From: Pseudomonadota bacterium
GTDB lineage: Bacteria > Pseudomonadota > Gammaproteobacteria > Pseudomonadales > Moraxellaceae
Assembly (NCBI GenBank): GCA_036019135.1
Contig: JAYXXU010000114.1
Location: forward strand, 1 to 33,857
Direction of reading: 5' to 3'
Length of the DNA: 33,857 nucleotides
Of this stretch, positions 1 through 33,857 are shown piece by piece. The position numbers and the translations under genes were made by a program. The notes beneath the pieces were generated by a model. That model was not told the origin of the DNA and did no database searches. It saw nothing but the letters and a program-made list of their open reading frames with translations. Numbering within the stretch: the first letter of the stretch is position 1; every line of letters starts with the position of its first letter.

Positions 1-127
1 TTGCACGGCTGAAGCAGTTTAGAGCCATTGCCACGAGATACGATAAACTGAAACGTAATTTCGTCAGTCTGGTGGCATTAGCATGTGCCTTCATCTGGTT
101 GCCAATGTGAAACGTCAACAGACCCTA
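1..127 (+). mobile_element. IS5-family insertion sequence, terminal fragment cut by the window edge; holds the transposase 3' end and the terminal inverted repeat
   Basis: Bases 1-127 are the exact reverse complement of 33731-33857. Frame 3 reads ARLKQFRAIATRYDKLKRNFVSLVALACAFIWLPM*, which matches the RxIATRYDK C-terminal signature of IS5-family DDE transposases. The terminus reads ...AACGTCAACAGACCC(TA). Confidence 0.8.
3..110 (+). CDS. IS5-family DDE transposase, C-terminal 35 codons (partial; continues upstream of the window)
   Basis: Open frame from the window edge to TGA at 108-110. It carries the FRAIATRYDKL motif. Confidence 0.75.
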   Translation, partial: ARLKQFRAIATRYDKLKRNFVSLVALACAFIWLPM

Positions 128-5940: not shown

Positions 5941-6336
5941 ATGACCATTAAACGCCGGATACAAACACGTCTACAACGCTCGAAGCGGTACGTGTTTACC
6001 CGTGATGACTTCAGCGACTTGGCCGGATACGATCAAGTCGGACGTGTGTTACGTGAATTGGTGAAAGACGGTGCATTGCTCAAGATTGGCTACGGTCTGT
6101 ATACCAAAGCCAAGCGCAACAGCATTACAGGCAATCTGATGCCAGCCTGTCCCGCTGGATCAGATGCCGTAATCTTAGAAGCACTCGACCGTCTTAAAGT
6201 TGACTATCTGTTGGATGACAGCACCACCCGTTACCTCAGTGGACAATCCACCCAGATCCCAGCCTTCACCAAACTGCATGTATCTGGACGGTTTAGCAGA
6301 CGTCTGGCAGTCGGTAGTAGTCAATTGAATGCTTAA
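5941..6336 (+). CDS. AbiEi-like antitoxin / transcriptional regulator (type IV TA), copy 1
   Basis: The 131-aa protein has a winged-helix-like N-terminus (FTRDDFSDLAGYDQVGRVLRELVKDGALLKIGYGLY). It overlaps the downstream nucleotidyltransferase gene by 8 nt. Confidence 0.7.
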   Translation: MTIKRRIQTRLQRSKRYVFTRDDFSDLAGYDQVGRVLRELVKDGALLKIGYGLYTKAKRNSITGNLMPACPAGSDAVILEALDRLKVDYLLDDSTTRYLSGQSTQIPAFTKLHVSGRFSRRLAVGSSQLNA

Positions 6337-7321
6337 GCTCACAGAACGTTTTGCTGAAGTTGCCGACGCTCTCGGTATTGGTGCAACCTCAATTGTCGAA
6401 AAAGACTATTACGTGGTCGAGCTACTGGCGTTATTGCACCCTTTACGCTTTGACTCACATCAATTGGTCTTCGCCGGTGGAACTGCACTGGCAAAAGCAG
6501 GAATCCGCCTAAACCGAATGTCGGAAGATGTGGATATTAAGCTGATTCCGAACCATATGTTTTTAGCCAAAAGTAGAACTCAGCGCAAAGCCATTAGACG
6601 TCAGGTGGTACAAGCGATTCAACACGCGATTGAGCAGTCAGTATTGTTTTCCTTCGATCCTGCCGAACCACACACCTACCTCGATGAATATCGCTATGCG
6701 GAGATACCCATTCGCTACCCACAAGCTTTTGCCCAAAGCCCTTGCCTTCGACCCTTTATCAAGCTGGAACTCATTGAGTCCGCACTGATCGAACCCGCCG
6801 AGCCACGTTCAGTCTCATCACTGATATTTGATCTGACTCAATTCGGCACACAACTGACTGACTTTCCAGCTGTTACCGTGCGTAGCACATTGGTTGAAAA
6901 AATTGTCTCGATGCTACGGCGAACCGCAGCAGTGGCGAGAAACAGCGAACGCTCAGATGATCCAGCACTGGTTCGTCACGTGTATGATCACTTCAGAATT
7001 ACGCAAGCTTTTGATTTTGAGCACACGGCATTGATCCCACTGCTGCAAAACGTTATTTCCGCAGATGTGGAGCGGTTTGGCGGGCAACACCCTCAAATGC
7101 GGGAAACGCCACTAGATGAACTGCGCTTTGGGCTAGAGCAACTCACCAGCAACCCGATTCATCAAGAACGCTATCATCACTTCGTAACACCGATGGTGTT
7201 TGGTCAAACCACCGTGACATGGCAAGATGCCTATGAATGCTTTCAGAAATCAGTGACGTCACTACTCGATTCGGTTGAACAGACTAATCAGAGCCGGAGT
7301 AGCTTAAAGTTGTCCAATTGA
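6329..7321 (+). CDS. AbiEii/AbiGii-family nucleotidyltransferase toxin, copy 1 (intact)
   Basis: It contains FAGGTALAKAGIRLNRMSEDVDIKL, the GGTAL ... RxSxDxD signature of the DUF1814/AbiEii family. It is 330 aa long. Confidence 0.8.
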   Translation: MLKLTERFAEVADALGIGATSIVEKDYYVVELLALLHPLRFDSHQLVFAGGTALAKAGIRLNRMSEDVDIKLIPNHMFLAKSRTQRKAIRRQVVQAIQHAIEQSVLFSFDPAEPHTYLDEYRYAEIPIRYPQAFAQSPCLRPFIKLELIESALIEPAEPRSVSSLIFDLTQFGTQLTDFPAVTVRSTLVEKIVSMLRRTAAVARNSERSDDPALVRHVYDHFRITQAFDFEHTALIPLLQNVISADVERFGGQHPQMRETPLDELRFGLEQLTSNPIHQERYHHFVTPMVFGQTTVTWQDAYECFQKSVTSLLDSVEQTNQSRSSLKLSN

Positions 7322-11239: not shown

Positions 11240-11599
11240 ATGAATACGCGCTTTCTTCATCTTATAGCTGCCTGCAGCACAACACTCGTTTTGCTGTCAC
11301 AACCAGCACTCGCACACGATCCCGCTGAACACGCTAAAGAGGCAGCCAGTGCAAAGGCAGCCCCTAACTGTGCCGCCATGCAAAGCATGGATCGCTCAAA
11401 AATGGACATGAATGATCCTGTCATGAAAGCCATGCATGCACGCTGTGCTGCAAAAATGCGAGCCGAGCCAAACAGCATGAGCAATATGGACCATAGCAAG
11501 ATGGAAGGAATGGATCATTCGCAGATGAACATGGGCAGCAAGCCACCTGCACCTAGCAATAAACCTGCACCTTCAGCAAATGGGCACGAGGGACACTAA
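11240..11599 (+). CDS. Secreted Met/His-rich putative copper-binding protein
   Basis: It has a signal peptide (LLSQPALA/HDP) and repeated MDxSxM motifs (MDRSKMDM, MDHSKMEGMDHSQMNM). Confidence 0.65.
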   Translation: MNTRFLHLIAACSTTLVLLSQPALAHDPAEHAKEAASAKAAPNCAAMQSMDRSKMDMNDPVMKAMHARCAAKMRAEPNSMSNMDHSKMEGMDHSQMNMGSKPPAPSNKPAPSANGHEGH

Positions 11600-23615: not shown

Positions 23616-24011
23616 ATGACCATTAAACGCCGGATTCAAACACGTCTACAACGCTCGAAGCGGTACGTGTTTACCCGTGATGACTTCAGTGATTTGGCCG
23701 GATACGATCAAGTCGGACGTGTGTTGCGTGAATTGGTGAAAGACGGTGCACTGCTCAAGATTGGCTATGGTCTGTATACCAAAGCCAAGCGCAACAGCAT
23801 TACAGGCAGTCTGATGCCCGCCTGTCCCGCTGGATCAGATGCCGTAATATTAGAAGCACTCGACCGTCTTAAAATTGACTATCTGTTGGATGACAGCACC
23901 ACCCGTTACCTCAGTGGACAATCCACCCAGATCCCAGCCTTCACTAAACTGCATGTCTCTGGACGGTTTAGCAGACGTCTAGCAGTCGGTAGTAGTCAAT
24001 TGAATGCATAA
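23616..24011 (+). CDS. AbiEi-like antitoxin, copy 2 (intact)
   Basis: It differs from copy 1 at 2 of 131 residues. Confidence 0.7.
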   Translation: MTIKRRIQTRLQRSKRYVFTRDDFSDLAGYDQVGRVLRELVKDGALLKIGYGLYTKAKRNSITGSLMPACPAGSDAVILEALDRLKIDYLLDDSTTRYLSGQSTQIPAFTKLHVSGRFSRRLAVGSSQLNA

Positions 24012-24996
24012 ACTCACAGAACGTTTTGCTGAAGTCGCCGATGCTCTCGGTATTGGTGCAACCTCAATTGTCGAAAAAGACTATTACGTGGTCGAGCTAC
24101 TGGCGTTATTGCACCCTTTACGCTTTGACTCATATCAACTGGTCTTCGCCGGTGGAACTGCACTGGCAAAAGCGGGAATCCGCTTAAACCGAATGTAGGA
24201 AGATGTGGATATTAAGCTGGTTCCAAACCCTATTTTTTTGGCAAAAAGTAGAACTCAGCGCAAAAACATCAGACGTCAGGTGGTACAAGCAATTCAACAC
24301 GCGATTGAGCAGTCAGTATTGTTTTCCTTCGATCCTGCCGAACCACACACCTACCTCGATGAATATCGCTATGCGGAAATACCCATTCGCTACCCACAAG
24401 CTTTTGCCCAAAGCCCTTGCCTTCGACCCTTTATCAAGCTGGAACTCATTGAGTCCGCACTAATAGAACCCGCCGAGCCACGTTCAGCTTCATCACTGAT
24501 ATTTGATCTGACTCAATCTGGCACACAACTGACTGACTTTCCAGCCGTTACCGTGCGTAGTACATTGGTTGAAAAAATTGTCTCCATGCTACGGCGAACC
24601 GCAGCAGTGGCCAGAAACAGCGAACGCTCGGATGATCCAGCACTGGTTCGTCATGTCTATGATCACTTCAGAATTACGCAAGCTTTTGATTTCGAGCACA
24701 CAGCATTAATCCCACTGCTGCAAAACGTTATTGCCGCAGATGTGCAGCGATTTGGCGGGCAACACCCTCAAATGCGGGAAACGCCACTAGATGAGCTCCG
24801 CTTTGGACTAGAGCAACTCACCAGCAACCCCATCCATCAAGAACGCTATCATCACTTCGTAACACCGATGGTGTTTGGTCAAGCCACCGTGACATGGCAA
24901 GATGCCTATGAATGCTTTCAGAAATCAGTGACGTCACTGCTCGATTCAGTTGAACAGAGTGACCAGATCTTGAATGGCTCAAAGTTGTTCAATTAA
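24004..24996 (+). pseudogene. AbiEii-family nucleotidyltransferase toxin, copy 2, interrupted by one in-frame TAG
   Basis: The TCG (Ser) at 6521-6523 in copy 1 corresponds to TAG at 24196-24198 here, a C-to-A change at 24197 within the RMSEDVD motif. The frame is otherwise intact and continues through 24205-24996 in the same phase. Confidence 0.8.
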
Positions 24997-25014: not shown

Positions 25015-25611
25015 CTAACCAACCAAAGTCAGCCCAAACAACCGCTCCAACTGTGCAAACGCCAGCTGCCGCTCACGCGCCTGTCCTAAGCGAACACAAT
25101 CGACCAAGGCCAGTAGATCATACAGCGCAGCGTCATGCTTGACCGCCACTGCCACACTCGCAAACAACGGTACAATCGCCTGCCCCTTGGCAGACCCTCG
25201 TGCATCTGGCCAGACGGGAATCAACTCGCCCGCACTCATCAACTGCTGCTGTAGCACAGGCTCAGCAAACCCTATTGGAATCCCCCGTGTGACCTCGCCT
25301 GGTCGCACAGGAAACAAATAGCGCACTGACGAACGCAGAATGTCCAGCAATGCCGACCGATTGACACGCGGCACATGCCACTGCCGATCTAGCCTGACTA
25401 ACCCAATCTCCAGCAAATGATTGAGCAACAGGCTGACCTGACTTTTACTAATTCCTGTCTGCTCTGCCAAACGCCGAACACTGTATTGCTGAATATCCAC
25501 GTGCTCACTTTTACGCTCAGCATTTTCGATACAGACCAGCTTGAGCAACAACCCAACTGCTTGACTCTTCAACATCACAACACCCGTCCATTGTCCTAGG
25601 ACTTGGGACAA
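25015..25611 (-). CDS. Hypothetical protein with a winged-helix-like N-terminal segment
   Basis: It contains SVRRLAEQTGISKSQVSLLLNHLLEIGLVRL. The start is uncertain (TTG at 25611 or ATG at 25575). I recognise no family. Confidence 0.4.
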   Translation of the reverse strand: MSQVLGQWTGVVMLKSQAVGLLLKLVCIENAERKSEHVDIQQYSVRRLAEQTGISKSQVSLLLNHLLEIGLVRLDRQWHVPRVNRSALLDILRSSVRYLFPVRPGEVTRGIPIGFAEPVLQQQLMSAGELIPVWPDARGSAKGQAIVPLFASVAVAVKHDAALYDLLALVDCVRLGQARERQLAFAQLERLFGLTLVG

Positions 25612-25888: not shown

Positions 25889-26104
25889 TGTCCCTGAACA
25901 CCAGATTTGACAATAGCTCAAAAGCAACACGATTCTAAGCATGCAATTTTTTCAAAAAAATTTAGCTAGTTTGAATCCATTTATGCAAATTGCGCGTATA
26001 CATATAGACGACTAATTCAATTTATACCGATTAGGTCGGGATAGATCAGTCGCAAAACGCAACTTGGATATGCTCTTTGCATCGATCAAAAATGGAGTTA
26101 CCCC

Positions 26105-27610
26105 ATGAACCGTCTCACTACACTATCTGCCGCCATGCTAATGGCGATGACTACCATGACAGTACAAGCTTCTAGCCATCGTGAAGCACCCAGTATCACA
26201 AAGAGCCCAAAGGTGGACGCGACTGATTTTTACATGTTTAAGAGCTATGAATCAGGACGAAGCGGATTTGTGACGCTAATCGCCAATTACCAACCTCTGC
26301 AAGATGCATATGGTGGACCCAATTATTTTTCGATGGATCCTAACGCACTCTACGAGATTCACATCGATAACAACGGCGATGCTAAAGAAGACATCACCTT
26401 TCAATTCCGCTTTACGCAAATGCTAAACGACTTGAAAGTTCCTGTAGGTGGGCAAATGGTATCTGTCCCACTATCAAATATTGGAGCGATTACTAACAAT
26501 AGCAATACCGCGCAAAACACCGCTGAACGCTACAGCGTCACCATGGTTAAGGGAGATCGCCGTGCTGGTAACCGCAGTAAATTAGGTACATTTGACAAAC
26601 CATTTGATAATGTTGGTAATAAGTCGATCCCCAATTACGCTAGCTATGCCAACAGTTTTATTAAGACCGTCAACTTTCCAAGCTGTGGCGCAGGAAAAGT
26701 ATTCGTTGGACAGCGTAAAGATTCTTTTGCCGTCAACCTCGGTGAAATTTTTGACCTAGTCAATATCACAGCACCCGCAACTGCTTTTGATGCAAACGCT
26801 GAAGACAAGGGGCTGAATACACTGGCTGACAAAAACGTTACTACTATTGCAATGGAAGTGCCGATTGCCTGTCTAACTGCGGGCAATGATCCCGTAATCG
26901 GTGCATGGACAACAGCTAGTTTGCGTCAAGGTCGCTTACTCAATCCCAGCCCTGAAAGCAACCTCACGACTGCTGCCAAAGAGGGTGGTGCATGGACACA
27001 AGTATCACGTTTAGGTATGCCACTGGTCAATGAAGTGGTGATCGGCCTTAAAGACAAAGATAAATTTAATGCAAGCAAACCTCAAAGTGACAGCCAATTT
27101 GCGACGTATGTAACGAACCCAACGTTGCCAACATTGCTTGAAGTATTGTTTAAAGAGGCAACAAATGGCGCTGTAGTTGCACCAACCAATTTCCCACGCA
27201 ATGACTTGGTCGGTACATTTCTGACTGGTATTAAAGGCTTGAACCAGCCAGCACGCCCAGTCGCATCAGAGATGCTACGCCTCAATACAGCAATTCCTGC
27301 CACAACAAAGGCTAATCAACAACGAATGGGTGTACTCGCTGGTGACTTTGCTGGATTCCCAAATGGCCGTCGTCCAGGTGATGATGTGGTTGATGCTGCT
27401 TTGCGGGTATCGATGGGCTTACTCTGTCATGTTGATGCAATTGGACCCATTGCGGATTTAAATGGTGATTTGAGCTGTCAGCCAACTGATGCCAAGGCTG
27501 GTACGATTTCGTTCACTGATGGTGCGCTGCAAAGCCCAGCTCAATTTGGTGATCGTTTCCCGTACTTGAACACCCCTATCGCTGGCTCACCAAATGTTGC
27601 CAGCCGTTAA
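26105..27610 (+). CDS. Secreted DUF4331-domain protein
   Basis: It has a signal peptide ending TVQA followed by SSHREAPSITKSPKVDATDFYMF. It also shows NYQPLQDAYGGPNYF, YEIHIDNNGDAKEDITFQFRF, LGMPLVNEVVIGLKDKDKFN and GFPNGRRPGDDVVDAAL, the conserved blocks I associate with DUF4331 (PF14224). A GGAG ribosome-binding site precedes the ATG. Confidence 0.85.
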   Translation: MNRLTTLSAAMLMAMTTMTVQASSHREAPSITKSPKVDATDFYMFKSYESGRSGFVTLIANYQPLQDAYGGPNYFSMDPNALYEIHIDNNGDAKEDITFQFRFTQMLNDLKVPVGGQMVSVPLSNIGAITNNSNTAQNTAERYSVTMVKGDRRAGNRSKLGTFDKPFDNVGNKSIPNYASYANSFIKTVNFPSCGAGKVFVGQRKDSFAVNLGEIFDLVNITAPATAFDANAEDKGLNTLADKNVTTIAMEVPIACLTAGNDPVIGAWTTASLRQGRLLNPSPESNLTTAAKEGGAWTQVSRLGMPLVNEVVIGLKDKDKFNASKPQSDSQFATYVTNPTLPTLLEVLFKEATNGAVVAPTNFPRNDLVGTFLTGIKGLNQPARPVASEMLRLNTAIPATTKANQQRMGVLAGDFAGFPNGRRPGDDVVDAALRVSMGLLCHVDAIGPIADLNGDLSCQPTDAKAGTISFTDGALQSPAQFGDRFPYLNTPIAGSPNVASR

Positions 27611-27634
27611 TCGGGCAGGTTAGGAGATCGAATC

Positions 27635-27874
27635 ATGCGTTATCTCATGCTATTCACCGTTTGCACCATCATGCTGACTGGTTGCTTTAATGACTCAAAT
27701 GACTCACAAGGTCGTACACAGCCTGCACCTGCACAGCCAGATAGCTTTGTGGTGCAAGTGCAACGCCAAGTCGATATTCCAAAGGCAAACGCTGATTCAC
27801 TTGAAGCGATTCAAGTAAGCAATATTGTCGAAACCTCACCAGAAACTGACGAACCGATATCAATCGTATTTTAA
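27635..27874 (+). CDS. Small lipoprotein (79 aa) of unknown function
   Basis: It has the lipobox MLTGC and an AGGAG ribosome-binding site. It starts 24 nt after the DUF4331 stop. Confidence 0.6.
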   Translation: MRYLMLFTVCTIMLTGCFNDSNDSQGRTQPAPAQPDSFVVQVQRQVDIPKANADSLEAIQVSNIVETSPETDEPISIVF

Positions 27875-27899
27875 CTGACATCGGTCAATCGTTTTACGC

Positions 27900-27932
27900 C
27901 AACTCAACTGAGTGAAGCTCTCAGTTGAGTTG
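27900..27932 (+). other. Perfect 13-bp stem / 7-nt loop hairpin inside the operon
   Basis: The sequence is CAACTCAACTGAG-tgaagct-CTCAGTTGAGTTG. It lies between the lipoprotein stop (27874) and the TPR-like gene start, and no clear U-tract follows it. Confidence 0.6.
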
Positions 27933-27967
27933 ATGAGTTGCTTGATAAATATCAACAGGACTATTTG

Positions 27968-29179
27968 ATGCGCCATATGACTCATAATGAGCCGCCTAAG
28001 TGGCATTTTTTAGCTCTATTCTTTGGCCTGATGTATGTGATATGCCATGTCAGCACAGCACAAGCATCACCGTACCGCCCAACCAATCCCGATCAAGTTT
28101 TAGAAAAATTGCCGCGAGACTTTCCTCAGTTAACGCTTGATCCTCGTACAGTCGCTCAAACCCCATCTGACGTAGATGCCAAACTGTCACAAATTCAAAA
28201 ACTATTAGAATATGCTTATTTACAAGGTGATCCACGTGCATTAGGCCAAGCAACTGCACTGTTACAGCGCCACCCTATGAGCTCTAACAATGTACCACTA
28301 TTAATGCTGCGGGCGCAGGCTGCCCAAGCCAATCATCAGTTCGCCGAAGCAACCAAATTTCTTAAACAAGTGACGCAACAACAACCCAACCATAGCGAAG
28401 CCTATTTACAATTGGCTTCAATCGAGTTGGTCAGTGGTCATTTTAATACTGCACGTCAATCCTGTGAGCTGGTTCGTGGTCTAGATGCACTCGTCTTACG
28501 TCTAGTTTGTCTTGCGCAAGTGGATGCGATGACTGGAAAACTAGCCGATACTGCTGCAAAACTACAAAAAATTTCGCAGCTACTCGATACATTAAATGCA
28601 TCACAACAGTTGTGGGTGCAATTGATTCAAGCCGATATTGCACTACGGCTCAATGACAAAATCCTCATGGCAAAAATATTAAAACAACTGCCTACCAATA
28701 ACGTGCCCGCCTTGACAGCACGCGCTGACTGGTTGATGGCGCAAGGGCAATGGCAAAAAGTATATGATTTATTAAAAAATCATACTGAGCACGAAGGCTT
28801 ATTAATCCGATGGCTCACCAGTAAACATCGACTTAAACATGCCGATGCGATAGAACACCAAAAGCTGCTAACTGAGAAAATTGCGCAATGGCGGCGACGC
28901 AATGATCAAGCGCATTATCGCGAGCAGGCCAGCTATGCTCTGTTAGCAGAGTCGGCCAAACAATCATTGAACCTGGCACGTGAAAACTGGAAAACTCAAC
29001 GCGAAACAGCCGATATGGTGATTTATGCAACGGCTGCGTTGCGTAGTAAGAGTCAGGTAGATATTCAAGCTTTATTAGATTGGGCGGATAGCACGAGGTT
29101 TGAGTATCCAATTGTGCTACAACGATTAATTGCTGCTCAGAACACGATAAAACCACATACACAGGATCGCGTCAAATGA
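27968..29179 (+). CDS. Exported or membrane-anchored TPR-like repeat protein
   Basis: It has an N-terminal hydrophobic segment (WHFLALFFGLMYVICHVSTAQA/SP) followed by helical repeats of TPR character (for example NHSEAYLQLASIELVSGHFNTARQSCE). I prefer the ATG at 27968 over the TTG at 27938. Confidence 0.55.
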   Translation: MRHMTHNEPPKWHFLALFFGLMYVICHVSTAQASPYRPTNPDQVLEKLPRDFPQLTLDPRTVAQTPSDVDAKLSQIQKLLEYAYLQGDPRALGQATALLQRHPMSSNNVPLLMLRAQAAQANHQFAEATKFLKQVTQQQPNHSEAYLQLASIELVSGHFNTARQSCELVRGLDALVLRLVCLAQVDAMTGKLADTAAKLQKISQLLDTLNASQQLWVQLIQADIALRLNDKILMAKILKQLPTNNVPALTARADWLMAQGQWQKVYDLLKNHTEHEGLLIRWLTSKHRLKHADAIEHQKLLTEKIAQWRRRNDQAHYREQASYALLAESAKQSLNLARENWKTQRETADMVIYATAALRSKSQVDIQALLDWADSTRFEYPIVLQRLIAAQNTIKPHTQDRVK

Positions 29180-30348
29180 TCACACTAACGCTTTTTTTGC
29201 GAAGTCGTTATCTGCTGGCAAGCCTTCTGCTGTTGTGTGGGCTATACATGGTGTGGATGCCGACAGCACACGCGCATCAGTCTAGTACAGCTTACTTGCA
29301 CCTATCGAAAGATTCGACAGACCAACCGCCTATACTCCAGTATCGGCTAGCTCTTAGAGATCTGGCAACGCTGTTACCACTTGATGCCAATCAAGATCAA
29401 CAGATCACATGGCAAGAGTTGTCAAGCCAGCAAAGAGCTGTCAATCAGTTATTACATGATCAGATACGCTTATCAAGTGCAGGTGCAGCGTGCACACTTA
29501 GCGCCAGCGAACCCTTGCTGATCGAGCAAGTGGCAGGACAAAATTATGTAGTGCAGCCATTACAGACATCATGTACCGAGCCTGATCAGTTAGATTATCG
29601 AATCCTGAAAGACATCGACAGTAATCATCGTCTGCTGCTGACTACGCAACAAATCGAACCAAGCCGTACTCAGACTCAACTGATTGCACCATCGGTAATC
29701 GAATTGTCTGCTGCATCACACTCATGGTTCGGGACAGCACAGCAATTTGTACTTGAAGGAGTACACCATTTGCTGATTGGTGCAGATCACGTGCTCTTTC
29801 TATTTTGTATTTTATTGCCCGCAGTATACCAACCACGCACCACTCGTCAGGCTACATTCATACCAGTTGAATATCCATCAAACACCATACGACAGGTGGT
29901 ATATGTAGCGACCGCATTTACACTGGCTCACTCGGTGACACTGACATTGGCTGCACTACAAATCGTTCAACTTCCAGCACAATGGGTCGAATCTGTGATC
30001 GCTGGCTCAATCATGGTAGCGGCACTGATGAATCTATTTGGTACTCAACGCCGCCAGATCGGACTCGCTTTTGTATTTGGTTTAATTCATGGCTTTGGCT
30101 TTGCCAATGTGCTATCGGATCTACCACTCCAGCCATTAGAGCGTGTGGTCGCGCTGTTATCGTTTAATCTCGGCATTGAGCTGGGACAGTTGCTCTGCAT
30201 CCTATTGTTTATGCCGTTTGCTTTATGGTTGCGCCATTCAGGATTTTATCGATGGGGCATATTTACGCTAGGTTCTGGCATTGCGGCGATCATTGCTTTG
30301 CTGTGGATGTTACAGCGAGTATTTGAGTGGAGTTTAATTGCTGGATAG
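29176..30348 (+). CDS. HupE/UreJ-type (HupE_UreJ_2-like) membrane protein with an N-terminal periplasmic domain of about 160 aa
   Basis: The signal ends PTAHA/HQSS, so the mature protein starts with His. The C-terminal multi-TM domain begins FVLEGVHHLLIGADHVLFLFCILL and includes GLIHGFGFANVL. Its start overlaps the TPR-like gene stop (ATGA). Confidence 0.8.
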   Translation: MITLTLFLRSRYLLASLLLLCGLYMVWMPTAHAHQSSTAYLHLSKDSTDQPPILQYRLALRDLATLLPLDANQDQQITWQELSSQQRAVNQLLHDQIRLSSAGAACTLSASEPLLIEQVAGQNYVVQPLQTSCTEPDQLDYRILKDIDSNHRLLLTTQQIEPSRTQTQLIAPSVIELSAASHSWFGTAQQFVLEGVHHLLIGADHVLFLFCILLPAVYQPRTTRQATFIPVEYPSNTIRQVVYVATAFTLAHSVTLTLAALQIVQLPAQWVESVIAGSIMVAALMNLFGTQRRQIGLAFVFGLIHGFGFANVLSDLPLQPLERVVALLSFNLGIELGQLLCILLFMPFALWLRHSGFYRWGIFTLGSGIAAIIALLWMLQRVFEWSLIAG

Positions 30349-30410
30349 CCCAAAGCTTTCTATACGTTGAAGATATTGTTTGAAAGCTTTATTTAAAGGA
30401 GCAAGTACAA

Positions 30411-32540
30411 ATGCAGCAATGGACAGCATGCCGATTGTTTAAACTAACGCTATTGGCCATGTACTGTAGTGGTGTGGCGTATGCGGGTGGACCACCACAG
30501 CCAACTGCCATTTTACCCACCATCACGGTTAGTGCCAATGCGGTACCAACGTCACAGTTACAAATCGCAGATACTGCCTCTCAAGGTACGGTCGATCAGC
30601 AGCAATTGGCCAACCGTCCTTTATTGCGGCCAGCTGAGGTACTCGAAACCGTACCTGGGGTGATTGCGACTCAACACAGTGGTGACGGCAAAGCCAATCA
30701 GTACTTTTTGCGGGGCTTTAATTTGGATCACGGTACAGACTTTGCCGTATCGGTCGACGGTGTACCAATCAACTTACCGACCCACGGCCATGGGCAAAGC
30801 TATCTGGACATGAACTTTATTATTCCAGAATTGGTTGAGCGGATCGACTATCGCAAAGGTGTCTATGCAGCACAAGATGGCGATTTTGCATCGGCAGGAC
30901 AAGCTGAGATCCGCACGGTACGTGAGCTAGAGCGGCCATTTGTACAAATCACCATCGGTGAAAATGCATATCAGCGGACACTTGCTGCTGGATCAGTTGC
31001 ACTCAATGATCAAGCAAGCCTGCTTGGCGCGATGTCACTGACACGACATGATGGCGTATGGGAGATGCCTCAAAAATTAGAAGCTGACCAAGCGGTGCTG
31101 CGCTACACCGAAGGAGATCCGCAACAGCATTGGACAATACTTGCACAATACTATCAGGCTAAATGGCAGGCGACAGATCAAGTGGCACAACGTGCAATTG
31201 ATCAAGGCGTAATAGGCCGATTTGGCAATCTCGAAAGCAGTAACGGCGGTGACACCCAACGTAGCTCATTGTCCTTGAATAGGGTATGGCACAACGCACA
31301 ACAATCGCAAATCTTGAACTTGTACGCCCTAGACTACCAACTGAACTTATTCTCTAATTTTACTTATTTTTTGGGTGATCCGTTACGTGGAGATCAATTT
31401 GAGCAGGTAGATCGGCGTCAAGTTTTGGGTGGTAATCTCAAACAAACTTGGCGTTCAAATTGGCAAGAGCGAGCAATGAGTAATAGTTTGGGCATACAAC
31501 TACGACACGATCATATTCGTGACGTTGGACTGCATTTGACTGAACGACGCGAGCGGTTTGACACAGTTCGACAAGATCAAGTCAATCAGACCTCATTGGG
31601 AGGATGGGCTGAGAATCAGGTGCAATGGCTGCCGTGGTTGCGCAGTGTGGCAGGATTACGGGTAGACGCCTATCGCTTCGACGTACAAGCAAATCGCCCT
31701 GAGAACTCAGGCCGTGCATATGACCAAATTGTGAGTCCTAAATTTGGCGTAGTACTGGGCCCATGGGCAAAAACTGAATACTATCTGAGCGCAGGTAGAG
31801 GATTTCACAGCAACGATGCGCGCGGCTCAACGATCAAGATCAATCCTGATCCGCGTGAAGCGGAATTTTTGCAAACCATTGACCGTGTTGATCCATTGGT
31901 CAGAACACGTGGGGCTGAACTCGGCTTGCGTACGGAATGGCTGCCTAACTTACATAGCAGCATGGCGATATGGCATCTAAAATCTGACTCTGAGCTGTTA
32001 TTCGTCGGTGATGCTGGTACTACCGAAGCCAGTCGTCCGAGTGAGCGATACGGATTGGAAATGAGTCATTTTTATCAGCCAAACGCAGTATGGACAGTAG
32101 ATCTTGATGCGGCTTGGTCACATGGACGGTTTAGTAATGATGCACTAGAGGGCAACCGTATTAGTGGAGCCATGGAAAAGACGGCATCACTTGGCCTGAC
32201 TTATCAACCATACGAAGACTGGGATATTGGGCTGCGTGGCCGCTATTTTGGTTCTCGACCTTTGATTGAAGATAATAGTAAACGGGCGACTGCATCCACT
32301 TTGCTCAATGCTCAAGTAACCTATCGCCCTCATCCTGACTGGCAAGCACGGCTTGAAGTGTTTAATTTGCTGGATCGCAAGGTGAATGACATCGAATACT
32401 TTTATGCGTCATGTTTACCTAGCGAACTCAGTACGCCGATCTGCGCTGCCAATGCAAATGAACGCGAAGGTGTAGAAGATCGGCATGTACATCCAGCTGA
32501 GCCGCGTAGTCTTCGCTTATCAGTACGCTTGAGCTTTTAA
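30411..32540 (+). CDS. TonB-dependent outer-membrane receptor
   Basis: It has a signal peptide, a TonB-box-like PTITVSA, plug motifs (VLETVPGVIATQ, FLRGFNLDHGTDF) and a long beta-barrel region that ends with the terminal aromatic ...LSVRLSF. An AAGGAG ribosome-binding site is present. Confidence 0.9.
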   Translation: MQQWTACRLFKLTLLAMYCSGVAYAGGPPQPTAILPTITVSANAVPTSQLQIADTASQGTVDQQQLANRPLLRPAEVLETVPGVIATQHSGDGKANQYFLRGFNLDHGTDFAVSVDGVPINLPTHGHGQSYLDMNFIIPELVERIDYRKGVYAAQDGDFASAGQAEIRTVRELERPFVQITIGENAYQRTLAAGSVALNDQASLLGAMSLTRHDGVWEMPQKLEADQAVLRYTEGDPQQHWTILAQYYQAKWQATDQVAQRAIDQGVIGRFGNLESSNGGDTQRSSLSLNRVWHNAQQSQILNLYALDYQLNLFSNFTYFLGDPLRGDQFEQVDRRQVLGGNLKQTWRSNWQERAMSNSLGIQLRHDHIRDVGLHLTERRERFDTVRQDQVNQTSLGGWAENQVQWLPWLRSVAGLRVDAYRFDVQANRPENSGRAYDQIVSPKFGVVLGPWAKTEYYLSAGRGFHSNDARGSTIKINPDPREAEFLQTIDRVDPLVRTRGAELGLRTEWLPNLHSSMAIWHLKSDSELLFVGDAGTTEASRPSERYGLEMSHFYQPNAVWTVDLDAAWSHGRFSNDALEGNRISGAMEKTASLGLTYQPYEDWDIGLRGRYFGSRPLIEDNSKRATASTLLNAQVTYRPHPDWQARLEVFNLLDRKVNDIEYFYASCLPSELSTPICAANANEREGVEDRHVHPAEPRSLRLSVRLSF

Positions 32541-32590
32541 ACTGGCAGTAATCACTCTCAGCGTACCCTCAAAAGGGTGCCAGTATTTTG
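32541..32590 (+). terminator. Weak candidate terminator after the receptor gene
   Basis: ACTGGCA...TGCCAGT forms an outer stem, with an inner ACCCT-caaa-AGGGT stem, followed by ATTTTGG. The structure is imperfect and the U-tract is short. Confidence 0.3.
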
Positions 32591-33730: not shown

Positions 33731-33857
33731 TAGGGTCTGTTGACGTTTCACATTGGCAACCAGATGAAGGCACATGCTAATGCCACCAGACTGACGAAAT
33801 TACGTTTCAGTTTATCGTATCTCGTGGCAATGGCTCTAAACTGCTTCAGCCGTGCAA
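33731..33857 (-). mobile_element. IS5-family insertion sequence, terminal fragment; an inverted copy of 1-127
   Basis: It is the exact reverse complement of 1-127. The transposase 3' end lies on the minus strand (33748-33855). Confidence 0.8.
33748..33855 (-). CDS. IS5-family DDE transposase, C-terminal 35 codons (partial; continues beyond the window)
   Basis: This is the mirror image of 3-110. Confidence 0.75.
   Translation of the reverse strand, partial: ARLKQFRAIATRYDKLKRNFVSLVALACAFIWLPM

Follow-up and report, generated by a model that had tools for sequence, protein, structure and literature searches.

What a compact set of genes for exported proteins does on a mobile element, and which metal it may handle, is the question raised by a contig of 33,857 nt from a member of the Moraxellaceae (JAYXXU010000114.1). 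The analysed stretch, called the window here over its full length, is probably the whole contig. Between positions 26105 and 32540, five genes on the + strand encode a DUF4331 protein, a small lipoprotein, a TPR-like protein, a HupE/UreJ-2 permease, and a TonB-dependent receptor (TBDR). The initial annotation had read them as an uncharacterised operon for TonB-dependent uptake or sequestration of a transition metal. By comparison with related loci, we give about an even chance to the window encoding an envelope-crossing transition-metal acquisition pathway controlled by an extracytoplasmic function (ECF) sigma factor. The conserved core of the system is the DUF4331 protein, the lipoprotein, the TPR protein, and the permease; the TBDR is accessory.

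The coordinates of the open reading frames (ORFs) and the intergenic gaps (24, 93, −4, and 62 nt) were exactly as first placed, so that five co-directional, tightly packed genes were obtained again. Profile searches matched PF14224, PF13795, and the plug and barrel domains of the receptor, as had been proposed, and all five products carried a signal peptide, a lipobox, or an N-terminal hydrophobic segment, in agreement with the earlier view that every product is exported. A consensus scan found no terminator-like site in the 62-nt gap between permease and TBDR genes. The same scan placed a terminator-like hairpin with a T-rich tail at 32563-32580 (+ strand), 23 nt past the TBDR stop codon, and the count of such sites in the region was not above chance.

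Conservation of the cassette was assessed in 160 loci fetched by DUF4331 alignments, 80 from contigs representing one genome per species and 80 from metagenomes. ORFs of these loci were scored against the window proteins, and 68 genome and 46 metagenome loci were evaluable; a receptor was called same-subfamily at 300 bits or more. The DUF4331, TPR, and HupE/UreJ-2 genes stood side by side in 51/68 genome and 31/46 metagenome loci (82/114), and the order DUF4331, TPR, permease was kept in 80 of these 82 core loci. A same-subfamily TBDR lay nearby in 13/68 genome and 6/46 metagenome loci (19/114, about 17%), and an ECF sigma gene together with an RskA-type anti-sigma gene was present in 19/68 and 17/46, respectively (36/114). 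The gene set therefore recurs as a neighbourhood, with a four-gene core in 82 of the 114 evaluable loci; the five-gene system first described stands for the window itself, where all five genes are present, but only four of them make up the conserved unit, and the TBDR is an accessory that recurs beside it. The TPR stop and permease start codons overlapped by 4 nt in at least 42 of the 82 core loci, and because this overlap recurs, translational coupling of the two genes is suggested.

Beyond the core, a TPR homologue adjoined DUF4331 in 101 of the 160 loci, and the DUF4331-TPR pair was also found in Chloroflexi, Eisenbacteria, and other distant lineages. Individual genomes illustrated how the receptor comes and goes. 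Agitococcus lubricus carried a TBDR and a TonB gene divergently, upstream of DUF4331, a small ORF, TPR, and HupE/UreJ-2, and Niveibacterium carried the four-gene cassette alone. In the closest relative of the window (DUF4331 86% identical) the four genes stood alone on a chromosome-like contig, between a Na/Ala symporter gene and sbcCD. Genes for a MetN-like ABC ATPase, threonyl-tRNA synthetase, a histidine kinase, and a peroxiredoxin were frequent neighbours and were rejected as members of the system, as they were lineage-specific housekeeping genes. A further arrangement was seen in Acinetobacter tjernbergiae (locus L005, 6450-15121), where a bufferin-like operon for a ribosomally synthesised and post-translationally modified peptide lay directly before DUF4331, TPR, and TBDR. 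This operon comprised MbnB/DUF692, DUF2063, an ECF sigma gene (− strand), and DoxX (+ strand), and the cluster was without a HupE/UreJ-2 gene.

The DUF4331 protein (501 aa, 26105-27610) matched PF14224 over the whole profile (1-421 of 421) with E = 2.1e-152 and 508.6 bits against a cut-off of 27. The family counted 5,080 representatives of 50%-identity clusters at E ≤ 1e-3 and was spread over Proteobacteria, Nitrospirota, Chloroflexi, and other lineages, including forms secreted by the type IX secretion system (T9SS). The window protein has a Sec signal peptide with predicted cleavage VQA↓SSHREAP (the arrow marks the cleavage site), which places Ser-Ser-His at nt 26171-26179. Three samples of the family together contained 353 members with a complete N-terminus, and in 337 of these the signal-peptidase site was followed directly by Ser-Ser-His-(Arg/Ser)-Glu-Ala-Pro. 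The site VQA↓SSH conforms to the −1/−3 rule, and the predicted mature X-X-His start has the pattern of an amino-terminal Cu(II)- and Ni(II)-binding (ATCUN) motif, as residue 2 is not Pro. Cleavage one or two residues later would put the His at position 2 or 1 (ASS↓H, giving His1). An ATCUN motif consists of a free N-terminus, two residues of which the second is not Pro, and His3, and it binds Cu(II) and Ni(II), Cu(II) very tightly, in a square-planar site made up of the terminal amine, two amide nitrogens, and the His imidazole. The predicted mature DUF4331 protein would thus begin like serum albumin and histatin-5, but in DUF4331 positions 1 and 2 are conserved too. To our knowledge, no family of exported bacterial proteins has so far been defined by an ATCUN motif.

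AlphaFold2 with 150 sequences gave a confident model (pLDDT 89.9, pTM 0.90) whose N-terminal half is rich in beta structure and whose C-terminal half is mixed. This confidence was reached only with the 150 sequences, which included the Chloroflexi clade; 26 close homologues gave a pLDDT of 48. Besides the extreme C-terminal residues, the sole low-confidence stretch was residues 16-25, including Ser-Ser-His. As the tail is invariant yet flexible in the model, its conservation fits a functional rather than a structural role. No relatives of DUF4331 were found in the PDB by sequence or profile search, and Foldseek of the model against PDB and BFVD gave nothing at E ≤ 1e-3, with a best TM-score of 0.13. 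The names DUF4331, PF14224, PF13795, and HupE_UreJ_2 were not found in the searchable literature.

Some DUF4331 proteins carried C-terminal FlgD_ig and Por_Secre_tail (T9SS) domains (L086 5523-9046, L170 6001-7827, P0291, P0302, P0313, P0368, and others), which implies, by the predicted sorting route, a cell-surface or extracellular location in those lineages. L086 had two DUF4331 genes in tandem. Another subgroup (P0154, P0163, P0165, P0168, P0176, and others; 16 of 150 representatives) showed short eukaryote-like signal peptides and the start SSHSEAPGT.

The permease (390 aa, 29176-30348) matched PF13795 with E = 3.8e-44 and PF04955 with E = 4.8e-6. The PF13795 match covered residues 191-354 only, so that residues 1-190 are extra to it. 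A signal peptide was detected, five or more hydrophobic segments lay within residues 199-379, and by inspection the membrane domain contained a GxxHxxxGxDH-like motif (EGVHHLLIGADH) and HGFGFA. Predicted cleavage AHA↓HQSS would leave a mature His1 (residue 34, nt 29275-29277), followed by a periplasmic N-domain (mature residues 1-157) with an EF-hand-like loop and then by the membrane domain. About 50 of 53 permease orthologues had an AxA↓H site some 170 aa ahead of the GxDH motif, and because this site is conserved before the membrane motif, the mature permease would start with His1. The alignment of the N-domain gave as invariants His1, S4, ALRDL, D37, two Cys, and H118, and the loop read LDxDGDGxLTWGE. 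No Pfam family was found for the N-domain.

An architecture of this kind was published in October 2025 as the anglerases Ang-1 and Ang-2, mono-histidine brace domains with His1 that are fused to HupE/UreJ-2 permeases (PMC12537917). Ang-1 occurs in Pseudomonadota and Ang-2 in Actinomycetota, and the structure of RbAng-1a is available as PDB 9GCE (PMC12537917). RbAng-1a, an Ang-1 fused to HupE/UreJ-2, binds Cu2+ (74 nM) and Ni2+ (220 nM) through His1, and the domain was proposed to capture metal and feed it to the permease (PMC12537917). Proteins of unknown function and DUF4198 are most often found beside Ang-1, and DUF4331, the TPR protein, the lipoprotein, an ECF promoter, or a TBDR link are not mentioned there (PMC12537917). 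The predicted architecture of the window permease matches the anglerase-HupE/UreJ-2 type; the likeness is one of architecture, with an N-domain that has no sequence match to PDB chains. Both combine a signal peptide, a predicted His1, about 160-175 aa of non-cytoplasmic domain, a linker, and PF13795; in both, the N-domain is proposed to capture Cu or Ni and hand it to the permease, and DUF4198 is a recurrent neighbour of both. The window N-domain differs in its conserved EF-hand-like loop and two Cys. The 'extended HupE/UreJ' of the initial annotation was thus right as to the extension (residues 1-190), but its architecture is one already described (PMC12537917).

Canonical HupE/UreJ proteins (PF04955), such as HupE of R. 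leguminosarum (PMC12537917, ref. 26), share a homologous membrane domain with the window permease, but they are single-gene hydrogenase or urease accessories without the N-domain, whereas here a multi-gene cassette was found with no Ni-enzyme genes nearby. The logic of the fusion is also seen outside this family. Copper import by CopC-CopD and YcnI-YcnJ uses a periplasmic N-terminal His-brace domain that is paired or fused with an inner-membrane permease. The cassette has this logic in common with them; the families, however, are unrelated, and no CopC/CopD was present among the larger ORFs of the window or, L001 apart, in the 160 related loci. The CopC family is cited in PMC12537917 (ref. 25).

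The permease that accompanies DUF4331 changed with lineage: HupE/UreJ-2 in Proteobacteria, and a NicO/RcnA-type protein in Thermomicrobiales and another distant lineage. The Thermomicrobiales-type cluster consisted of an ECF sigma gene (with or without RskA), DUF4331, TPR, and a NicO-family protein of 504-536 aa, which had the RcnA-like signature HALSPGHGK, a long His-rich loop, an A↓HPLGNF start, and a DxNGDG loop. NicO/RcnA-like partners with a His1 N-domain of about 220 aa were observed in Chloroflexi-type loci (L085 10229-11743, L087 9932-11542). The fusion of a His1 N-domain to NicO appears not to be described in the literature examined. Comparison of the HupE and NicO N-domains by hhalign aligned 123 columns (E = 2e-4, probability 47%), which is suggestive, and BLASTP between them was not significant. 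Other distant loci showed DUF4331-TPR alone, or together with a shorter HupE/UreJ-2.

In most proteobacterial loci without the TPR and permease genes, a DUF4198 gene was present instead, either immediately after DUF4331 or, in opposite orientation, up to about 3 kb before it. This alternative arrangement was seen in L027, L031, L035, L080, L086, L091-L093, L113, L121, L134, and L137. Those DUF4198 partners whose N-terminus was readable likewise had a signal peptide ending just before His1, A↓H(D/E)FW. The three unrelated DUF4331 partners (HupE/UreJ-2, NicO, and DUF4198), all linked to Ni, Co, Zn, or Cu, are thus predicted to expose a processed N-terminal His. Metal capture by DUF4198 proteins has been reported: IsDUF4198 binds Ni2+ (Kd 18 nM) and is encoded near TonB receptors and NikR (PMC12537917), and Zcp, a DUF4198 protein of N. 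gonorrhoeae, captures periplasmic Zn (PMC12663993). These capture proteins resemble the present system in being exported, in the processed His1, and in TBDR and NikR neighbours, and they sit beside DUF4331 in the loci without the core. They are unrelated to DUF4331 in sequence; DUF4331 is larger (about 480 aa mature) and has its His at position 3 rather than 1, and DUF4198 is not encoded in the window.

The two remaining core proteins were characterised mainly by position and N-terminal features. The small lipoprotein (79 aa, 27635-27874) has the lipobox LTGC (nt 27674-27685), a low-complexity linker, and an acidic C-terminal tail (...SPETDEPISIVF), and no family was found for it in Pfam or NCBIfam. 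At least 23 related loci had, in the interval from DUF4331 to TPR, a lipobox ORF with a '..EP..I(D)......(D/E)TEP..' tail. The lipoprotein is thus conserved by position, being too short and divergent for sequence searches. The TPR-like protein (403 aa, 27968-29179, with an alternative TTG start at 27938) gave several weak TPR matches and has one N-terminal hydrophobic segment, AQA↓SPYRP, which may be a signal peptide or an anchor. Scaffold roles would suit both proteins.

The TBDR (709 aa, 30411-32540) matched the plug PF07715 (E = 2e-16) and the barrel PF00593 (E = 9e-24). It starts with a signal peptide, shows on inspection a TonB-box-like PTITVSA (residues 36-42, nt 30516-30536), and lacks an N-terminal signalling extension. 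It fell into no curated NCBIfam subfamily, the best hits being generic siderophore, haem, and B12 models far below their cut-offs, and the TonB-copper receptor model (OprC/NosA, TIGR01778) gave no match at E ≤ 0.01. Despite the different arrangement, the window TBDR shared 45% identity with the Agitococcus TBDR along its whole length, and 33-52% with other cluster-linked TBDRs (44.7% with that of L041 and 42% with that of L066). Four loci had a NikR gene (RHH_1 and NikR_C) beside the cluster, and in two of them, L041 (GTATGA-N15-TCATAC) and L066 (GTATGA-N16-TCATAC), a canonical NikR box lay in the interval that separates nikR from the orthologous TBDR gene. Another NikR-box match, in L005, was taken as a chance hit, being 9 kb away and within an AT-rich spacer. 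A TonB gene lay inside or beside the cluster in L133 and L001. TBDR nickel uptake under NikR control is known for FrpB4 and FecA3 of H. pylori, and NikR-regulated receptors have been predicted in proteobacteria (PMC11247825). The system described here would resemble these in using a TBDR as an outer-membrane nickel gate, and orthologues of the window TBDR come with NikR genes and boxes. It differs in that the window lacks a NikR gene and box and has a HupE/UreJ-2 permease in place of NixA or an ABC importer, as well as an ECF promoter.

This promoter emerged from K-mer enrichment in the regions upstream of DUF4331. The motif TG(C/A)ATCC-N16-CGTA, with fixed spacing, was present upstream of DUF4331 in 84 of 147 sequences (the window and 146 loci); its four −10 positions were 88-94% conserved and its median distance to the start codon was 82 nt. 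The window contained a single TGMATCC-N16-CGTA match, with 0.04 expected by chance, at 25972-25998 on the + strand (TGAATCC as −35 region, 16 nt, and CGTA as −10 region), 107 nt upstream of the DUF4331 start codon. By its conservation, the motif would be a putative ECF-type promoter. In the related loci, the genes downstream of motif matches were DUF4331 (81), same-subfamily TBDR (13), and the ECF sigma gene (12), and the motif before the sigma gene suggests an autoregulated regulon. The ECF sigma factors of these loci had region 2 and region 4 domains and an adjacent anti-sigma protein with an RskA_C domain. By inspection, the sigma factor has two Cys, as in SigK-type ECF18/19 (PMC7826278, PMC7509140). 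Both known SigK/RskA-type systems (ECF18/ECF19; PMC7826278, PMC7509140) and those of the related loci have a sigma factor of regions 2 and 4 beside an RskA_C anti-sigma protein; a regulon with the DUF4331 cassette and TBDR had not been reported, and the window lacks the sigma/anti-sigma pair. CnrYXH is an analogue as a metal-sensing ECF system.

The window held no homologues of ECF sigma, RskA, TonB, NikR, or DUF4198 at E ≤ 0.01. The earlier observation of an operon without regulator or TonB therefore holds for the genes, but a conserved ECF-type promoter precedes the operon. As the window is without a cognate sigma/anti-sigma pair, expression of the operon would need a sigma factor that is encoded elsewhere. 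Upstream of the operon, boxes of the Fur, Zur, NikR, CopR/CusR, and CueR types, scored by consensus sequences, were no better than in shuffled sequence. Of the shared metalloregulator operators that had been suggested (Fur, Zur, NikR, and CopR types), none rose above this level, and the ECF promoter was found instead. The 198-aa protein encoded just upstream of the operon (25015-25611, − strand) has a weak IclR/MarR-type helix-turn-helix and is not taken as regulator of the cassette, because it has no counterpart beside the cassette in other genomes. An Rfam scan of the whole window, including the B12 riboswitch, gave no match.

From these features a route for the metal can be proposed. The accessory TBDR would carry the metal, free or chelated, over the outer membrane, and the Sec-exported DUF4331 protein, processed to NH2-Ser-Ser-His, would capture or buffer it outside the cytoplasm. 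The metal would then be handed from DUF4331 to the processed His1 'anglerase' domain of the permease, which would feed it into the HupE/UreJ-2 channel and on to the cytoplasm. The TPR protein, translationally coupled to the permease, and the acidic-tailed outer-membrane lipoprotein may serve as scaffolds, and transcription would start from the SigK/RskA-type ECF promoter, in the window by means of a sigma factor encoded elsewhere. Binding of metal by DUF4331, the order of the hand-off, the direction of transport, the identity of the metal, and the parts played by the TPR protein and the lipoprotein are our proposals. The broader form of the idea is that DUF4331 represents a new class of extracytoplasmic metal-capture proteins, in which Ser-Ser-His hands metal to His1 partners, TPR couples the two, and a dedicated SigK/RskA-like regulon senses envelope metal; we put this forward tentatively, as possible but somewhat short of an even chance.

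Nickel is the likeliest metal, with copper as second candidate and cobalt or zinc possible. Nickel is placed first because of the NikR genes, the NikR boxes, the DUF4198 census, and the Ni/Co associations of the HupE/UreJ and NicO families. Nickel-linked neighbours in the 160 loci were NikR (4) and DUF4198 (13); copper-linked neighbours were a CopA-type ATPase (2) and the bufferin operon (1), with 0 for multicopper oxidase, CusRS, CueR, and CopCD. The presence of TBDR, TonB, and NikR control would favour uptake as the direction. The TonB-dependent transition-metal pathway first proposed is therefore supported comparatively in its envelope route with a soluble DUF4331 component, but the TBDR stands outside the core, being found in about 17% of loci.

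The same architecture could serve copper, for import or for periplasmic chaperoning, for example toward cuproenzymes, and would on that account travel with the copper island of the window. Individual loci lend themselves to this reading. The window cassette lies beside CusRS, a cluster of outer-membrane efflux protein (OEP), multicopper oxidase, and DUF411, and CueR-CopA; in L169 a Cu-type P-ATPase and a cupredoxin are encoded upstream, in L001 CopCD is found no more than about 3 kb away, and in Acinetobacter tjernbergiae the bufferin-like MbnB/DUF2063/DoxX operon directly precedes DUF4331. X-X-His N-termini of the ATCUN kind bind Cu(II) very tightly, and the mono-histidine brace of the Ang-1-HupE/UreJ-2 fusion prefers Cu2+ to Ni2+ by its reported affinities (PMC12537917). 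Across the 160 loci, however, copper neighbours were as rare as counted above, and nickel is indicated by NikR in 4 loci, NikR boxes in 2, and DUF4198 in 13. The TBDR did not match the TonB-copper model, no CopR-, CusR-, or CueR-like box was found upstream, and the cassette of the closest relative has no copper genes nearby. We therefore regard copper as a serious, though rather unlikely, alternative to nickel. A different direction is implied if the cassette is a metal-stress module, in which envelope stress induces the ECF regulon, DUF4331 sequesters excess periplasmic metal, and the permease exports or equilibrates it. Control by an ECF sigma factor and an RskA-type anti-sigma factor is typical of stress responses, and the window copy travels on a mobile element full of metal-resistance genes. 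Moreover, the Chloroflexi partner is RcnA-like, RcnA being a Ni/Co efflux protein in E. coli (PMC11247825), and Zcp, a DUF4198 protein, buffers periplasmic zinc and does not import it (PMC12663993). The recurrent link with TBDR and TonB points to import instead, as do NikR boxes before the TBDR, since NikR classically represses uptake genes, and relatives of HupE/UreJ are described as uptake permeases (PMC12537917, PMC11247825). Nor were efflux pump components conserved in the neighbourhood of the related loci. The stress module is judged unlikely.

DUF4331 may, finally, not be a metal carrier at all. It could be a secreted enzyme, or a protein that binds some non-metal ligand or chelate, such as an anionic organic compound or a metallophore, with an N-terminus that serves sorting, maturation, or recognition by the TPR protein. 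Asp, Asn, and Arg predominate among its invariant residues, which include just one His, and by inspection its DNNGD and GFPNGRRxGDD loops resemble Ca2+- or ligand-binding loops. The Ser-Ser before the His is stricter than ATCUN requires, the fold has no known relative, which leaves function unconstrained, and T9SS sorting domains in other phyla suggest a surface or extracellular location. Against this, the constant partners of DUF4331 are metal-handling proteins with His1 sites, the family is associated with NikR and DUF4198, and binding of a metallophore would still mean metal uptake; we consider a non-carrier role very unlikely.

The preferred reading, nickel acquisition by the DUF4331 cassette, has to be held against several of the results themselves. 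The TBDR is missing from about 83% of related loci, the closest relative included, and NikR occurs in just 4 of 160. The window itself has 9 NikR-box-like sites at 3 mismatches, compared with 12 expected, none of them near the operon. Ang-1 binds Cu2+ tighter than Ni2+ (PMC12537917). For the permease N-domain, a PDB profile search returned EF-hand loops only, and a sequence search returned no PDB chain. Besides His25, DUF4331 keeps only Asp, Asn, Arg, Gly, and Pro invariant, and neither Cys nor Met nor a second His is among them; metal binding by the body of the protein is not indicated, because such residues would suit Ca2+ sites or an anionic ligand better than a Ni or Cu site within the fold. 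The near-invariant Ser-Ser exceeds what ATCUN demands, and the motif may have another purpose. Buffering or export is possible, given the RcnA-like partner, the ECF control, and the location in a resistance island. The functions assigned to the cassette proteins are themselves predictions by comparison.

TonB-dependent and permease-mediated acquisition of transition metals is known as a kind, and so is the anglerase permease class. What is new, as not found in the searchable literature, is DUF4331, TPR, and lipoprotein as partners of anglerase permeases, the SigK-like regulon, and the NikR-linked TBDR subfamily. The passage of nickel, and to a lesser degree copper, over the periplasm to inner-membrane permeases is poorly understood outside a few pathogens. 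The cassette offers a concrete candidate route with a new soluble component, a capture-domain permease, an ECF promoter motif, and a NikR-linked receptor subfamily. If the proposal is true, it would be a previously unrecognised, widespread nickel (or copper) acquisition pathway, it would give a function to a large DUF family without a solved fold relative, and the principle of the processed N-terminal histidine would be extended to X-X-His. The window copy on a mobile element would mean that such uptake modules move horizontally alongside metal-resistance genes.

Family searches of the window ORFs confirmed that the operon sits on a mobile element beside two copper-handling systems, as first annotated. 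Mobile and defence functions were represented by IS21 istAB, two resolvases, two AbiE modules, HipBA, and two Fic genes, and copper handling by CusRS with an OEP/multicopper oxidase/cytochrome c/DUF411 cluster, and CueR with a CopA-type ATPase. Since the closest relative carries the four-gene cassette without TBDR and copper genes, the copper neighbourhood of the window is probably incidental. The copper island was also rejected as a marker of the metal of the cassette, copper genes being rare beside it elsewhere. Within the copper cluster, a 119-aa ORF (11240-11599) with no Pfam family was observed between the outer-membrane efflux and multicopper oxidase genes, and it overlaps the oxidase start by 20 nt. 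No record in the plasmid database resembled the operon or the remaining window.

Repeats at 93-95% identity (4553-4852/17946-18245, 4995-5031/18647-18683, and 5739-6076/23413-23751) spanned a resolvase end and the AbiEi region. The element is a mosaic by its repeat pattern, in which similar resolvase/AbiE modules precede different cargo, the copper block and the DUF4331 block. The second AbiEi/AbiEii pair (23616-24996) looks damaged, with the AbiEii frame split into 24004-24198 and 24205-24996, and the copy at 5941-7321 is intact. The ends of the window (1-127 and 33731-33857) form a perfect 127-nt inverted repeat, which may be an assembly artefact and not true terminal inverted repeats of a transposon or linear element, 127 being a common maximum assembler k-mer.

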